Source of the DNA: a virus | Direction: 5' to 3' (one strand) | DNA: 39,435 nucleotides | Virus genome (UHGV): UHGV-1377012 | Shown: positions 3,483-33,493 of the stretch, in pieces | Layout: the number at the start of each line of letters is the position of its first letter | Numbering within the stretch: the stretch's first letter is position 1 | Position numbers and translations under genes: made by a program | Notes under the pieces: model-generated | Database searches by the model: none | Told to the model about the DNA's origin: nothing | What the model saw: only the letters and a program-made list of their open reading frames with translations

Positions 3483-5834
3483 TTAGAGATTTCCTGTTGA
3501 CTGCCAAGTGCCAGGAGTGCCGGCGGTAACACATACCCACTCCTTAGGGCTCCCGACAGCAGGAGAGGAATTTATGCATCGCGATCCCCTTGGCCAGGTC
3601 AAAGTGGTTGGAGCGGCGGTATCGTAAAGCACAGGGAGAGATGACCCTTGTTTCACCAAACTTCCAAGCCACGCTGGAACTGTTGGCACATCCCAACGAC
3701 AGCCAGAGTGGAAGAACGCTCCAACACCATCTCCGTACATTCTGATTGCGTCTCCAGTTGTATTTGTGCTGTGACAATCGATAAGGATTAGTGGTTCATT
3801 GTTCCATGAAACGTTTCTGAAGAAACCGTTGAACCTAACTCCTTCAAGTTTCGTAGCGGAGGTTACAGTGAATGCTATATCAGATGTGCCTGCGCCAATG
3901 TGGCTAAAGTTACAATTTTCAAATGTCAGATATCCGGTGGTTCCACCTGTACCTGTCATAACAACGCCACAAGAAGCAGAGCAATTTCTTACGGTAGTAT
4001 TATTGGCAGTGTTACCGAAAGCAGCAGATACGTTAGAAATGCTGACGTTTTCAACTGTGATATTGTCGCCATTGCTACAATGGATCGCCGTTGAATCGTA
4101 AATGTCACCATATTTTGTTATACTTCCTCCATTGAAATGGCAGCGAGTTCCTTGCAAAGAAATCATATAGCTTCCGCTAAATGACTGGCTCCATCTATGG
4201 ATATGGCAATTACTCAACTCAACGTTAAGTAGTGTTCCTGCATCATTGTAAATGTAGATGTCTATTTTTTTGTTATCGCCAGCCAGATGGTCGAAAATGT
4301 GGATGTAACGTGTAGTGGCATCATCTCCAGATTGTGAATACACACGAATGCCGTACTCGCTATTTCCGAATGTTTGATTTCCTTTAAAGGTTGTACCAGT
4401 GCTCTTCCAGGCAATACATCCTCTGCCGCCATCAGATATTTCTGTATCACTCAGATAACCATTATAGTTACCGACAGAATTGATAATTTCATTGAATGTC
4501 CCGTAACGGTCTTCAAGACCCATACCCCAGTTATTTTCAGAAATGCAATCCTGAATTTTACAACGTGTGCAATTGATCATCTGAATACCAGAGCCAGGGA
4601 CCCTTCTTACTGTCATTCCTTTAACAGAACTATAAGAGGTATCAGCAACTAATACCGCAGACACTACACTGTTTGCTCCAGCCCTGACACCTGTGCCAAC
4701 TATAAAACCACCTGAGGTATGTGTATTAGCCCCCCTTATCGCCAATATATAATTTGCCAGCGAAGTACCCTGGATTAACCTTGATGATCCAAAGTCTACA
4801 GACCTACCTGCTTGCAATGTTATAGTGGCATCAAGAAGATAATCACCACCTGTAAACTGCATTCTCTTGCCAACAGCAAACATGGCGTTAATTGCTGCTG
4901 AGCACGGGGTAACTCCATCAGGCACTGCGCCAGCCATTAATGGGTTAATGATATCAGCATTAACACGAATCCATGCCGCTCCACCAGGAGTCTTGAATAC
5001 GGTAACGCCGTTGTCTGTATATGCACTTCCATCAAGCACTGCGCGAAGCTGGCCACCACCGTAACCTGTGCCAGAGGTATATTCTTTCAGGAGCACCCGC
5101 TGACCATCGGAAGCTGGCTCCGTTGCACGGAGAACTGTGACGTTAGGGAATTGCCCTATCAATTTGAAGCCGTCACTTTTTGCCAGCTCCATCAGAACTT
5201 CAGATGCGGAAGCTGATGGCGGGAGAACGACAATTGCATTACCCATGCTATCAAACGCGGGCATTTTGTTTGCCCTGTCAACTGCTGATGGTAGCTGATT
5301 GATTGGCTCTGGTACGCGCAGAGTACGCATCAGGTTGCCACTGGACAGCGTATCAACATAATTCTTGGTAGCTGCATCCTGAGGGTCCCGTGGGTCGCGG
5401 AGATTGCGAATATAGTTGTTCAGCGCATCGTACCAGTTCGCGATGCTTGATGGTTTACGCAGCGCCAGGCGGAACACGCTGAATGCCTGTTGGATCAGCA
5501 TCGTCAGCTTATCGAATGCGTCCTCATGCACCTCTGCGAAGAACTTACCCTGGTTGCGCAGATCGGTATCCTGCGTAACCGGTAGCTCTCTTGATATAGA
5601 AATCTGATAACCGTTAACCAACGCCTTCGACAGAATTACATTGCCGCCGTTATACCCTCCCGCACCAGTGACTATGTAATCAGTATCAAGAGCCAGCACA
5701 GCGATATTTTCGTCAAGGTCAACCACCTGCACTACCAGATCAGATTCATTGAAAACCCTAAAGGTATAAGGGAATGAAGTCGTAACGCCATTGCCTGTGT
5801 ATTCGTTGTGGTCAACTTCGGTTGAGACCGTCAT
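3483..5834 (-). CDS. Tailspike / receptor-binding protein with probable beta-helix depolymerase domain
   Basis: 783 aa; N-terminal roughly 150 aa look like a virion-attachment domain, the remainder is rich in Gly/Asn/Ser/Thr repeats typical of right-handed beta-helix tailspikes; last structural gene before the cargo and lysis genes. Confidence 0.7.
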   Translation of the reverse strand: MTVSTEVDHNEYTGNGVTTSFPYTFRVFNESDLVVQVVDLDENIAVLALDTDYIVTGAGGYNGGNVILSKALVNGYQISISRELPVTQDTDLRNQGKFFAEVHEDAFDKLTMLIQQAFSVFRLALRKPSSIANWYDALNNYIRNLRDPRDPQDAATKNYVDTLSSGNLMRTLRVPEPINQLPSAVDRANKMPAFDSMGNAIVVLPPSASASEVLMELAKSDGFKLIGQFPNVTVLRATEPASDGQRVLLKEYTSGTGYGGGQLRAVLDGSAYTDNGVTVFKTPGGAAWIRVNADIINPLMAGAVPDGVTPCSAAINAMFAVGKRMQFTGGDYLLDATITLQAGRSVDFGSSRLIQGTSLANYILAIRGANTHTSGGFIVGTGVRAGANSVVSAVLVADTSYSSVKGMTVRRVPGSGIQMINCTRCKIQDCISENNWGMGLEDRYGTFNEIINSVGNYNGYLSDTEISDGGRGCIAWKSTGTTFKGNQTFGNSEYGIRVYSQSGDDATTRYIHIFDHLAGDNKKIDIYIYNDAGTLLNVELSNCHIHRWSQSFSGSYMISLQGTRCHFNGGSITKYGDIYDSTAIHCSNGDNITVENVSISNVSAAFGNTANNTTVRNCSASCGVVMTGTGGTTGYLTFENCNFSHIGAGTSDIAFTVTSATKLEGVRFNGFFRNVSWNNEPLILIDCHSTNTTGDAIRMYGDGVGAFFHSGCRWDVPTVPAWLGSLVKQGSSLPVLYDTAAPTTLTWPRGSRCINSSPAVGSPKEWVCVTAGTPGTWQSTGNL

Positions 5835-5938
5835 GTTAAATCTCCAGATAGTCGCAGCACCCGTTGCGCCGCATATCTGGTTATTCTATTACCTGAAAAA
5901 CCACATATGGATAGAAAGACTGTGAATACGAATAGATA

Positions 5939-5953
5939 TTACCTTTCGGGTAA
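5939..5953. promoter_or_regulatory. Perfect palindrome TTACC-TTTCG-GGTAA, candidate operator
   Basis: Immediately upstream of a TTGCAA hexamer (5955..5960) and of the LexA box; a half-site plus CCACATATGG lie at 5889..5910. Confidence 0.55.
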
Positions 5954-5990
5954 TTTGCAAAACGTGCTGGATAGCAAATAAATTATTTGA

Positions 5991-6010
5991 TACTGTATAT
6001 TTATACAGTT
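5991..6010 (+). promoter_or_regulatory. LexA (SOS) box TACTGTATATTTATACAGTT
   Basis: Perfect CTGT-N8-ACAG with AT-rich spacer, 20 bp upstream of the ATG at 6030 and just downstream of a promoter-like TTGCAA-N17-ATAAAT. Confidence 0.75.
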
Positions 6011-6029
6011 ATTGCATGGAGAAGATAAG

Positions 6030-6287
6030 ATGCAGCAGTATCACTATCCACTGGAAGACGGATTTACCGAAAGGATTTACACGCCGGGAGGCGTCAGGTC
6101 ACTGGTGGAGGGATCGCACTTGATGAAATTACTCCTGGATCTCGATAAGGATGGATTTAATGTCGATGGCCCACTTGCCGAACTGACTGCACTGATTAAC
6201 TACGTCACCAGCTCACAGATGTCTATGCAGGATCTGCAAACACATCTCGACTATTGTGCCGAACAATTACGAAAACAAACCACATAA
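6030..6287 (+). CDS. SOS-box-controlled small acidic protein (85 aa), candidate antirepressor
   Basis: ATG at 6030 with GGAGAA 7 nt upstream (the track start at 6012 is a TTG); plus-strand gene embedded in a minus-strand structural operon; preceded by the LexA box. Confidence 0.6.
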   Translation: MQQYHYPLEDGFTERIYTPGGVRSLVEGSHLMKLLLDLDKDGFNVDGPLAELTALINYVTSSQMSMQDLQTHLDYCAEQLRKQTT

Positions 6288-6292
6288 AGAAA

Positions 6293-6310
6293 AGGCCGCG
6301 AAAGCGGCCT
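6293..6310. terminator. Hairpin AGGCCGC-GAAA-GCGGCCT between convergent genes
   Basis: 7-bp GC-rich stem; T-rich run follows on the minus strand and A-rich on the plus strand; sits between 6030..6287 (+) and 6319..6615 (-). Confidence 0.5.
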
Positions 6311-22789: not shown

Positions 22790-22857
22790 ATCAATGACTC
22801 CGTACGCAATTAAATTATTACCAATTTAACCACATATGATTTATTTATCGTAGGTGG

Positions 22858-23217: not shown

Positions 23218-23294
23218 GTGGCATTAGCTCAGCTGGACAGAGCAACCGCCTTCTAAGCGGTTGGTCGCAGGTTCGAATCCTGCATGCCACGCCA
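23218..23294 (+). tRNA. tRNA-Arg (anticodon TCT, reads AGA)
   Basis: 77-nt cloverleaf: acceptor GTGGCAT/ATGCCAC, D-stem GCTC/GAGC, anticodon stem ACCGC/GCGGT with loop CTTCTAA, T-arm GCAGG-TTCGAAT-CCTGC, discriminator G and encoded CCA. Confidence 0.9.
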
Positions 23295-23379: not shown

Positions 23380-23457
23380 ACAGCAGGACGCCATTGCGAT
23401 GACTTCATGCTGTAAACCAGTACAGCCACGGAAGGCATAACTCATTGCTTCCAGTTC

Positions 23458-23495: not shown

Positions 23496-23510
23496 TTACC
23501 TTATGGGTAA
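23496..23510. promoter_or_regulatory. Perfect palindrome TTACC-TTATG-GGTAA, candidate operator
   Basis: 33 bp upstream of the ATG at 23543, directly after the terminator. Confidence 0.55.
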
Positions 23511-23542: not shown

Positions 23543-24433
23543 ATGCTTGACTTCATCCGTGACATTTACTCCTCTTTCCGCCAAGCATCTCTTGAGCGAG
23601 TGAAAAGCCCGTTCCTTGGGGCATTTGTTTTTTCCTGGCTTTGCTTTAATTGGCAGATGTTAGCAATTCTATTTTTTAGTTCTAAGGATATTGAAAAGCG
23701 CCTTGCTATTATTAATGGCTCTTTCGGCATCGTCAGCTTTTTAATTGCGCCAATATGCACTACAGCATTGATAGTTATCCTTTTACCGCAAATTAATAAA
23801 TTGATTACAATAATACAAGATAAACCTAACTCAGACACAATTGAAATGAGCCTTGCATCTAAAATAAAGATCGCCGAACTGCAGCAACTATTAGCAGAAA
23901 ATGAAGCAAGAAAGAAACTTGCTGATAAAAAAGAAGAACGCTTCATTGAAGAGAATATTATTTCAATAAAAAAAGACCATGAAAAAGCAATAGATAACCT
24001 TAAAGACAAAGAAAGTAAAATCTCAAATCTCACGGACACAATAACTGAACTTCAGAGCAAACTGGTTAAAGCTGAGGCCACTCTCAAAGTTGAACAGGAG
24101 TCAAGATCCCAAGTGCAGAATGAATTGATTATTGAAAAAGAGAACAAGCGGAAATTAGAAGACAACATTCTGCACCTTAATTTAAGTTTAAAAAAAAACC
24201 AATCAGAATTGGCCATTGCAAAAGAAGCCTATGATAATACCTTGATGGCTTATAATGAACTTAACACAACATTAAAAAAAGCAGAAAGCTCAATAATAAA
24301 CTTCAATGCTAACTTTCCTTTTTTAACTGACATAAATAACAGCACCCCAAATACATACTTAAAAATAAATAAAAATGCATGGGAGCATTTAGTTAGTTTA
24401 AATTTAAGTCTAAAGGAAAAAATACAAAAATAA
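23543..24433 (+). CDS. AT-rich membrane-anchored coiled-coil protein (cargo gene, function unknown)
   Basis: 296 aa; two N-terminal hydrophobic helices followed by about 200 aa of Lys/Glu/Leu-rich heptad-like sequence; very AT-rich; opposite strand to the flanking terminase and portal genes. Confidence 0.7.
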   Translation: MLDFIRDIYSSFRQASLERVKSPFLGAFVFSWLCFNWQMLAILFFSSKDIEKRLAIINGSFGIVSFLIAPICTTALIVILLPQINKLITIIQDKPNSDTIEMSLASKIKIAELQQLLAENEARKKLADKKEERFIEENIISIKKDHEKAIDNLKDKESKISNLTDTITELQSKLVKAEATLKVEQESRSQVQNELIIEKENKRKLEDNILHLNLSLKKNQSELAIAKEAYDNTLMAYNELNTTLKKAESSIINFNANFPFLTDINNSTPNTYLKINKNAWEHLVSLNLSLKEKIQK

Positions 24434-25926: not shown

Positions 25927-26519
25927 TGATTACCATCCTGACGTTCTTTCAGTCTCTTCCTGGCTGCTGCTATGCGATCAGCAATTGTCACATTCACATT
26001 AACATCCATGCGTTCTTTGAACGCGTTGACGTCGACGTGCTTACCAATCAGTTCGAGGTTCTTCACCTTGTCAGGCCATTTAATTTTTTTGAGGATTGTC
26101 TCTATCGAATCCTCGTTCATGTTCATGATGGTCGATGACAGATCAAAGCCGCTAAGCGTAGTGCGCCAGATTTTCGGCCACTCGCGGATTGGCTTAAGGC
26201 TCCCATCGTCGTTGAGGATATCAATCACGTCCATCTGGTCGATCTCCACCAGGCGCATGAGAACGTAATCGGCACTGACGCGCATTCGTTTGTTGCGCTC
26301 CTCCATCAACTCGGCAATCCGTTTTTGAATGCGTTCATCGCGCATCATGACACTGGCTTTAACTGCCGCTGTATTTGGGGAGAATCCTGCGTTAATCGCT
26401 GCCTGAGTCTGGTTTTCAGGCGTTTTGATGTATGACTGGCAATAAGCCTCCTGCATTGCTGTTAGTGGCTTAAATTGCGTTGATTTGCGTTTATAGGTTT
26501 TAGGTTCAGCAGGCATCAT
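25923..26519 (-). CDS. Terminase small subunit
   Basis: About 198 aa; start placed at the ATG at 26519 because the track N-terminus (TITTTVTITTVV) is the translation of the GGTAATAG repeat region. Confidence 0.65.
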   Translation of the reverse strand: MMPAEPKTYKRKSTQFKPLTAMQEAYCQSYIKTPENQTQAAINAGFSPNTAAVKASVMMRDERIQKRIAELMEERNKRMRVSADYVLMRLVEIDQMDVIDILNDDGSLKPIREWPKIWRTTLSGFDLSSTIMNMNEDSIETILKKIKWPDKVKNLELIGKHVDVNAFKERMDVNVNVTIADRIAAARKRLKERQDGNQ

Positions 26520-32656: not shown

Positions 32657-32719
32657 TCACCCATAAGGTAACAAAAATCAAGGATAGTTACCTATGGGGT
32701 GCATTTACCTGTTGGGTAA
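32657..32719. promoter_or_regulatory. Operator cluster (OR-equivalent): three TTACC-N5-GGTAA-type sites
   Basis: TCACC-CATAA-GGTAA (32657..32671), TTACC-TATGG-GGTGC (32688..32702) and perfect TTACC-TGTTG-GGTAA (32705..32719) in the 154-bp divergent intergenic region. Confidence 0.6.
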
Positions 32720-32774: not shown

Positions 32775-33359
32775 ATGAAAAGTATCCAGGACGTCCGCAG
32801 GCAAAATCTCAACGACTTGATCGACCGTGAATTCAATGGTGTTCAGACGCGGATGGCAGAAAAACTTGGAACTCAGGCAAATCTGGTAAACCGCTGGGCT
32901 CTTGGCAAGAAGGTTATCGGCGACCAGGTTGCGCGAAAAATTGAAGCTGCCGCCAATAAACCCCGTAACTGGCTTGATATCGATCGCTCGCTTTCTCAGG
33001 AAGGTTTTCAGCCTGTCGGCCCGAGCGATATAGGTCAGCTGGCGGCTCACAACCTGGAACGCTGGATGAGCGAAAGCCGCGACCTTTCAACACAGGGAAA
33101 ACTTCACCGCGCATCCGGCGTCGCCCAGGTGACAATCAGCCGCCTGTTAAACAATGAGGTCAGCGTTTCCATTTCCACCCTGGAGAATGTTGCATCCGCA
33201 TTCGGGCGTCACGGCTATGAATTACTGATTCACCCGCACGACCCTGCGACCATCAACTATGACCGCTCGCGCTACGCATTGTTACCCGAAACCGAGAAAG
33301 CAAAGATCGAAAGTTACATTGAATTTGTCATCAACCAGAACGAAAAAAACAAACAATAA
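32775..33359 (+). CDS. Repressor-like DNA-binding protein with two HTH-like segments and no recognisable S24 autopeptidase domain
   Basis: 194 aa; TRMAEKLGTQANLVNRWALGKK and GVAQVTISRLLNNEVSVSISTLENVASAFG look like HTH motifs; no Ala-Gly/Ser...Lys LexA-type cleavage module seen in the C-terminal region; divergent from the Cro-like gene and followed by a strong terminator. Confidence 0.55.
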   Translation: MKSIQDVRRQNLNDLIDREFNGVQTRMAEKLGTQANLVNRWALGKKVIGDQVARKIEAAANKPRNWLDIDRSLSQEGFQPVGPSDIGQLAAHNLERWMSESRDLSTQGKLHRASGVAQVTISRLLNNEVSVSISTLENVASAFGRHGYELLIHPHDPATINYDRSRYALLPETEKAKIESYIEFVINQNEKNKQ

Positions 33360-33416: not shown

Positions 33417-33493
33417 TTACCTTAAGGGTAATTTTTTTAACTCATATCTATTGACACCAAACCAAATACGCATAATCATTACCTCAACGGTAA
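33417..33493 (+). promoter_or_regulatory. OL-equivalent: two perfect palindromes flanking a TTGACA hexamer
   Basis: TTACC-TTAAG-GGTAA (33417..33431), TTGACA (33451..33456), TTACC-TCAAC-GGTAA (33479..33493), directly upstream of the early-left operon. Confidence 0.55.

Follow-up and report, generated by a model that had tools for sequence, protein, structure and literature searches.

Why does a single small gene run against its neighbours in the midst of the virion genes of UHGV-1377012, and what would switch it on? Across the stretch of DNA analysed here (39,435 nucleotides, or 39.4 kb; hereafter the window), the minus strand carried all of the long ORFs listed at 165–22809, and the gene at 6030–6287, here called ant, was the lone plus-strand gene amid the virion genes. 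The first-pass annotation had placed a LexA box before this gene and had ventured, as a guess, that its product is an antirepressor triggered by the SOS response. The region is very probably an ant module, that is, an antirepression switch of the SPC32H type, in which LexA would act as an off-lock, the SOS response would release it and Ant would strip Rep. This reading was based on the orthology of Ant and Rep to a crystallised pair, a gene order identical to that of SPC32H, a LexA box whose position is conserved, an ant frame under purifying selection and a Rep without an autocleavage domain; LexA binding, SOS inducibility, the Ant–Rep contact and tetramer disassembly are predicted by analogy, being taken from the SPC32H ortholog.

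Setting and identity of the ant gene

Nucleotide comparison of 485 bases around the ant gene revealed 96–98% identity to Uetakevirus phages of E. coli, namely phiV10, TL-2011b, vB_EcoP_ZX5, PAS61, phiv142-3 and O157 typing phages 9 and 10. The window is that of a temperate podophage or prophage in the genus Uetakevirus, akin to epsilon15 and phiV10. The ant gene was located between the tailspike and injection-protein genes and was antiparallel to both; the order tailspike (minus), ant (plus), small integral membrane protein (minus) and 824-aa protein (minus) was identical in SPC32H. The spacer between ant and the tailspike gene, whose ATG lies at 5834, is a divergent control region of 195 bp, and the distance from ant to the immunity region was ~13 kb by the circular map and ~26 kb along the window. 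The features in and around this region were as follows.

5939–5953: perfect palindrome TTACC-N5-GGTAA, reading TTACCTTTCGGGTAA (with its flanks ATTACC-N5-GGTAAT), a Rep-operator-like site in the ant/tailspike control region
5968–5973, plus strand: candidate −35 hexamer TGGATA
5988–5996, plus strand: candidate extended −10 element TG-n-TACTGT, reading TGATACTGT
5991–6010, palindromic and without strand: putative LexA (SOS) box TACTGTATATTTATACAGTT, identified by its consensus match and by a position conserved across loci
6018–6024, plus strand: ribosome-binding site GGAGAAG (GGAG at 6018–6021), kept in the aligned E. coli and Salmonella loci
6030–6287, plus strand: ant, for the predicted 85-aa antirepressor, ortholog of SPC32H Ant (ATG at 6030, TAA at 6285–6287, stop included)
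6293–6310: G+C-rich hairpin with a T-tract on the minus strand, between the convergent ant and minus-strand membrane-protein genes

The reading frame was as first described, a plus-strand ORF at 6030–6287 antiparallel to the virion genes and encoding an acidic protein of 85 aa (pI 4.7; 12 D+E vs 6 K+R). Comparison of this protein with SPC32H Ant revealed 86% identity (85.7%; 85 vs 86 aa), and the ortholog in SPC32H and SPC32N is annotated as ‘ant: anti-repressor protein’ (SPC32H_020). Chain E of PDB entry 5D50, named ‘Anti-repressor protein’, matched residues 2–85 with E=1e-45. Entries 5D50 and 5D4Z belong to the SPC32H Rep/Ant system (Kim & Ryu, J Virol 2013; Kim et al., PNAS 2016). In a tblastn search, homologs of Ant were found in 35 phage records, at 95–98% identity in phages of E. 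coli, 82–86% in those of Salmonella, 76–83% in those of Enterobacter and 58–61% in those of Klebsiella. In comparisons of ant with its Salmonella, Enterobacter and Erwinia orthologs, dN/dS was 0.04–0.07 at dS >1.3, which indicates that the ant frame is under strong purifying selection.

Searches of the family collections gave a more fragmentary picture. Ant matched PHROG 450, which carries the label ‘unknown function’, with E=8e-46, and PHROG 1760, labelled ‘anti-repressor’, at E=1.5e-6 over only positions 177–225 of the 232-position profile. No Pfam or NCBIfam model was found for Ant, and a sub-threshold hit to DUF724 of Pfam (18 bits vs the 38.4 cut-off) was dismissed. The first-pass annotation could name no family that the protein matches; this statement has to be withdrawn, since by homology the 85-aa protein belongs to the SPC32H Ant family, which has been characterised and is without a Pfam or NCBIfam model. 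Four of the six features that define this family were found in the window: homology, gene position, the LexA box and a cognate Rep. SPC32H Ant itself is reportedly called structurally distinct in the abstract of Kim & Ryu from 2013.

A small protein of this kind might also be a DinI-like modulator of the SOS response, a toxin, or a small SOS-induced moron that has nothing to do with repressor inactivation; the first two had been named beforehand as outcomes that would speak against an antirepressor. Ant is small and acidic, is predicted to be under LexA control and sits amid virion genes as many accessory genes do, and its lack of a Pfam or NCBIfam family would suit such an origin. However, no DinI, toxin or Bro-N match to Ant appeared in Pfam at E≤1, and Ant exhibited no significant similarity to Tum of phage 186, a 146-aa antirepressor with a DinI-like C-terminal half (BLASTP of the single pair: 17 bits, E=0.03). 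Its 86% identity to a protein that was crystallised with its repressor effectively refutes this alternative by orthology, and we give it next to no credence. The assignment to the SPC32H Ant family is therefore retained in what follows.

The LexA box and the proposed ant promoter

The box TACTGTATATTTATACAGTT at 5991–6010 had 2 mismatches to the E. coli LexA consensus of 20 nt, TACTGTATATATATACAGTA. It was the sole site in the window with ≤3 mismatches to this consensus, and none of 100 dinucleotide-preserving shuffles of the window, which served as the null model, contained any match (0/100), so that the box of the first-pass annotation was borne out. The bare pattern CTGT-N8-ACAG was not significant in itself, with 2 matches vs 0.56 expected and with ≥2 matches in 11 of 100 shuffles. 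Its second copy, at 23410–23425, was not taken as a LexA box: it lies in a non-coding stretch downstream of a tRNA-Arg gene, its spacer is rich in G+C and it departs from the 20-mer at over 3 positions.

The conservation of the box was analysed in an alignment of the ant upstream regions of ten phages (alignment A3), and the box was scored in 13 loci, consisting of these ten phages, two Citrobacter prophages and one Erwinia prophage; the latter three were the sole close matches from a scan of a genome contig collection. The distance from the end of a LexA-like box to the ant ATG was exactly 19 nt in 10/13 loci and 18 nt in the three from Klebsiella; for the end of the palindrome, the corresponding distances were 76 nt and 74 nt. 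The sequence around the box diverged among the loci (mean column identity 75%). Both arms, CTGT and ACAG, were intact in 9 of the 13 loci, which comprised the wild-type E. coli, Salmonella, Enterobacter, Citrobacter and Erwinia loci. The boxes of the three Klebsiella uetakeviruses had ATGT instead of CTGT as the left arm, together with a 1-nt insertion; LexA control may thus be weaker or altered on the Klebsiella branch, and some members of the family may lack tight LexA control.

The remaining deviation came from SPC32N. In the aligned ant upstream region, SPC32N and SPC32H differed at one base only, the right arm of the box being ACAG in SPC32H and AAAG in SPC32N; the changed base, the C of ACAG, corresponds to C6006 in the window. 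Kim & Ryu are said to have found in 2013 that the two phages are two nucleotides apart, that one of the two differences lies in the LexA site over the ant promoter, and that this change makes Ant constitutive and forces SPC32N into lytic growth; LexA control of the SPC32H box has reportedly been demonstrated by experiment. The single difference in our alignment agrees with this reported cause of constitutive Ant synthesis. The window box, with 2 mismatches to the LexA consensus, is one position nearer to it than the SPC32H box, which has 3.

We infer promoter hexamers for ant at 5968–5973 and 5988–5996, a proposal based on conservation and on the analogy with promoter p95 of phage 186. The candidate −35 hexamer TGGATA is inside a CTGGA.A block that was invariant in the ten sequences of alignment A3, the TG and TA..T positions of the extended −10 element were likewise invariant there, with a 1-nt insertion at this element in the Klebsiella rows, and the spacer between TGGATA and TACTGT was 17 nt. 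TACTGT in this candidate −10 shares bases with the left arm of the LexA box. In p95, the annotated −10 TACTGT forms the first six bases of the box TACTGTATGTTTATACAGTA; TACTGT likewise begins the box in the window. Transcription of ant would plausibly start at about 6002–6005, inside the box, and a putative LexA site thus lies over the proposed ant promoter as in the SPC32H type. No promoter in the region before ant reached the threshold of a stringent sigma-70 scan.

The box could in principle serve mainly the divergent minus-strand tailspike or late promoter instead of ant. The 195-bp region is divergent, and a conserved motif at 5888–5909 and the palindrome at 5939–5953 face the tailspike gene. 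Nevertheless, only 19 nt separate the end of the box from the ant ATG, vs 157 nt from its start to the tailspike ATG; the distance between box and ant was fixed in the 13 loci despite their differing tail-fibre genes, and the box mutation of SPC32N is reported to render Ant constitutive. Control of the tailspike as the main role of the box is highly improbable in our judgement, and we treat the box as the predicted LexA site of ant.

At the other end of the gene, the hairpin at 6293–6310 had a folding energy of −15 to −16 kcal/mol (z ~ −4) on either strand, and a terminator scan reported it as a terminator-like site of the minus strand; the epsilon15 record has a terminator annotated at the equivalent place. 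Since its T-tract is on the minus strand, the hairpin serves, as far as these features indicate, chiefly to end transcription of the late unit upstream, for which it is a good terminator; it can stop ant transcripts too, though more weakly. With the late unit terminated there, the tailspike gene would need a promoter of its own in the 195-bp spacer between ant and tailspike.

The repressor Rep and its candidate operators

Analysis of the immunity region revealed a repressor gene, rep, divergent from a cro-like gene in the ORF layout, with operator-like palindromes on its two sides.

32657–32719: two palindromes, OR-like candidate operators, between the cro-like gene and rep
32775–33359, plus strand: rep, for the 194-aa repressor and presumed target of Ant, which has a pair of HTH-type domains but lacks an S24 peptidase domain
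33417–33493: two palindromes, OL-like candidate operators, downstream of rep and upstream of the plus-strand early genes

Rep matched chain A of 5D50, named ‘Repressor’, over its full length with E=4e-42, and was 100% identical to the annotated repressors of phiV10, ZX5, PAS61 and others. Pfam placed HTH_3 in its C-terminal half and a weak YdaS/Cro-like match in its N-terminal half, and had no match to Peptidase_S24, the autocleavage domain of LexA and CI. Rep thus combines two HTH-type domains with the absence of an autocleavage module, as does the SPC32H repressor, and the earlier description of an apparently non-cleavable repressor fits this protein, a homolog of SPC32H Rep. The matches of Ant to 5D50 chain E and of Rep to chain A, together with the 86% identity of Ant to SPC32H Ant, give the antirepressor role, at first only a guess, support at the level of homology.

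Homologs of Rep and Ant co-occurred in essentially the same ~35 phage records, and their degrees of conservation were very different. Identity between Rep and SPC32H Rep was 42% overall, with 54% in the N-terminal domain (residues 1–70), 22% in the linker (71–88) and 38% in the C-terminal domain (89–194); it was 75–78% to Rep of Enterobacter phages and 45% to that of Klebsiella phages. With Ant at 86% vs Rep at 42%, the immunity region and ant are, as judged from these identities, of different evolutionary histories, and the contrast fits a position of ant outside the recombining immunity region. An alignment of four Rep alleles contained 66 invariant columns, including I.YD...Y..LP..EK.KI.....F...QN in the C-terminal domain. 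Kim et al. are said to have identified this domain in 2016 as the part of Rep that binds Ant in 5D50. Because the C-terminal domain is only 38% identical, the interface between Ant and Rep is not assumed to be identical to that of SPC32H.

Some sister phages have a second antirepressor gene, of the Bro-N type represented by PHROG 1760, downstream of ant: ORF4 of vB_EcoP_ZX5 (locus L014, 2674–3369) and phiV10p23 (locus L002, 3571–4155). ZX5 ORF4 has 231 aa with a Bro-N domain at its N-terminus, and its residues 150–223 were 41% identical to residues 2–75 of Ant; phiV10p23 matched ZX5 ORF4 exactly as far as about residue 173 and diverged thereafter, apparently through a frameshift. The 85-aa Ant has no N-terminal Bro-N domain of the kind that marks the Bro-N/KilAC type. 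Overexpression of ZX5 ORF4 reduced lysogeny (PMC9782041), and ZX5 Rep is 100% identical to the window Rep; by analogy, this offers indirect support for the action of an Ant-type domain on the Rep allele of the window. Neither a second ant paralog nor a Bro-N antirepressor was found in the window, where the terminator hairpin comes immediately after ant, so that the small Ant would be its sole antirepressor candidate.

These comparisons also bear on the question of whether resident Rep is the target at all. Ant could be under SOS control and yet be aimed mainly at something else, such as the repressors of other prophages or another protein, with the diverged Rep inactivated by another route. 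Such an arrangement would account for an Ant that is 86% conserved between E. coli and Salmonella beside a Rep at 42% (C-terminal domain, 38%) and for the second antirepressor, with its Ant-like C-terminal domain, that adjoins ant in sister phages; trans-acting antirepressors are moreover documented for Gifsy phages (PMC7380047). Against it stand the co-occurrence of Ant and Rep homologs in phage records, a Rep without an autocleavage domain and a window without another antirepressor, in which tblastn with the Bro-N proteins matched only ant. The C-terminal block among the 66 invariant Rep columns could, in addition, be a conserved contact surface. An off-target Ant is accordingly improbable in our view, and Rep is kept as the presumed target of Ant.

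The palindrome that had been noticed before ant, TTACC-N5-GGTAA at 5939–5953, is indeed perfect and sits 37 nt upstream of the LexA box. It proved to be one of many, since 14 sites with ≤1 mismatch were present in the window vs 0.73 expected. These 15-nt sites start at 2047, 5939, 22880, 23496, 26519, 26537, 30312, 30374, 32320, 32657, 32705, 33417, 33479 and 39234. By the ORF list they are intergenic, except that those at 26519 and 26537 fall within a TTG ORF of the program-made listing. Late units (for lysis, tailspike, head and terminase) and early units alike are preceded by such sites, and rep has two of them on either side. In the GenBank record of epsilon15, the equivalent of the 5939 site is annotated as ‘protein_bind repressor, lysogeny’, and the equivalents of the sites at 33417–33493 are annotated as repressor-binding sites. 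The palindrome at 5939–5953 is thus a Rep-operator-like candidate, and the distribution of the sites suggests that one repressor silences nearly all transcription units of the phage.

A second motif was also observed. ATTACC-N5-AACCACATATG, which on the minus strand reads CATATGTGGTT-N5-GGTAAT, had exactly 2 sites in the window vs 0.03 expected, at 5888–5909 and 22817–22838. Both copies lie just upstream of minus-strand late units, the tailspike gene in one case and a 79-aa ORF (ATG at 22809) followed by the portal gene in the other, and a full palindrome is found 29 or 41 nt further upstream of each. The copy at 5888 was kept in 10/10 aligned phages, Klebsiella phages included. The motif may be a late-promoter or activator site.

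The proposed switch, related systems and distribution

In a lysogen, host LexA bound to the box at 5991–6010, over the −10 element and the likely start, would keep ant off, and Rep, unable to cleave itself, would occupy the ATTACC-N5-GGTAAT operators and keep the lytic genes silent. After DNA damage, active RecA would cause LexA to cleave itself and ant would be transcribed; Ant would then bind Rep, break its DNA-binding tetramer and free the operators for lytic growth. In SPC32H, Ant is made following LexA self-cleavage and inhibits the lytic repressor via protein–protein contact (PMC7380047), with an Ant tetramer binding Rep dimers and releasing Rep from DNA (PMC9638917). Ant has been described as locking Rep in a non-functional conformation and not as occluding its DNA-binding domain (bioRxiv 10.1101/2025.11.27.690993). 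The circuit is therefore already known, having been published for SPC32H (Kim & Ryu 2013; Kim et al. 2016), and the ant–Rep switch of the window adds conceptually nothing beyond that work.

The resemblance to SPC32H, which is also in the genus Uetakevirus, extends to an orthologous Ant, the position and orientation of its gene, the distance of the LexA box, the position of the palindrome and a Rep without S24; the differences are that the window phage is from an E. coli lineage, that its Rep allele is 42% identical and that its box is closer to consensus. Other antirepressor systems were more distant. The first-pass annotation had likened the gene to tum of 186 and to the Gifsy-type genes. The functional logic of that analogy stood, and with it the layout of the Tum promoter, in which a LexA box over p95 controls a small antirepressor gene far from the immunity region, whereas homology to Tum did not; 186 is, besides, a P2-like myovirus. 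Gifsy-1, Gifsy-3 and Fels-2 of Salmonella (Lemire et al. 2011) similarly combine small antirepressors under SOS control with non-cleavable repressors, with antirepressor genes that lie beyond the immunity region and products that are able to act in trans (PMC7380047). These antirepressors differ in being of other protein families, in lambdoid siphoviruses; their separation from Ant is based on the abstract of Kim & Ryu from 2013, in which SPC32H Ant is reportedly called structurally distinct. P22 offers another temperate podophage antirepressor that inactivates its repressor non-covalently, encoded in immI under the control of Mnt and Arc; however, P22 Ant is large, unrelated and not under LexA control, and the C2 repressor is cleavable by RecA (PMC7380047).

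Two extensions of the circuit can be entertained tentatively, and we hold them to be possible but rather doubtful: that Ant acts across alleles on a conserved Rep surface, and/or that the ant–tailspike region is under a second, Rep-dependent lock. With Ant at 86% and Rep at 42%, Ant possibly recognises a surface that the Rep alleles share, for example the invariant C-terminal block described above. If so, Ant would be a cross-lineage inducer of Uetakevirus prophages with differing Rep alleles. The palindrome upstream of the box would, on the second proposal, put ant or the tailspike gene under Rep as well, with positive feedback once Ant appears. Neither cross-allele action of Ant nor a Rep lock on ant is described in the literature examined, in which SPC32H was covered by secondary accounts.

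The locus was common: of 5426 complete E. coli genomes, 531 (~10%) carried it, nearly always on the chromosome and at 90–99% identity, and in 10/10 of the top-listed E. coli records the ant feature was annotated as ‘hypothetical protein’. A 2022 study of ZX5 ascribed antirepression solely to the Bro-N protein encoded next to ant and mentioned neither LexA nor SPC32H (PMC9782041). The practical value of the assignment is in closing an annotation gap, that of a common prophage gene without a family model and with a PHROG label of ‘unknown function’. It also leads to two predictions: common E. coli prophages, including O157 phages of the phiV10 type, should be SOS-inducible by way of LexA and Ant and not by repressor cleavage, and a single C6006-to-A change should make them obligately lytic, which could be of use in phage engineering.

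A further plus-strand island was observed elsewhere in the window. The tRNA-Arg gene (anticodon TCT) at 23218–23294 on the plus strand separates the head genes from the terminase genes together with a 296-aa ORF that follows it on the same strand (23543–24433); this ORF had no Pfam match and is preceded by the palindrome copy at 23496.
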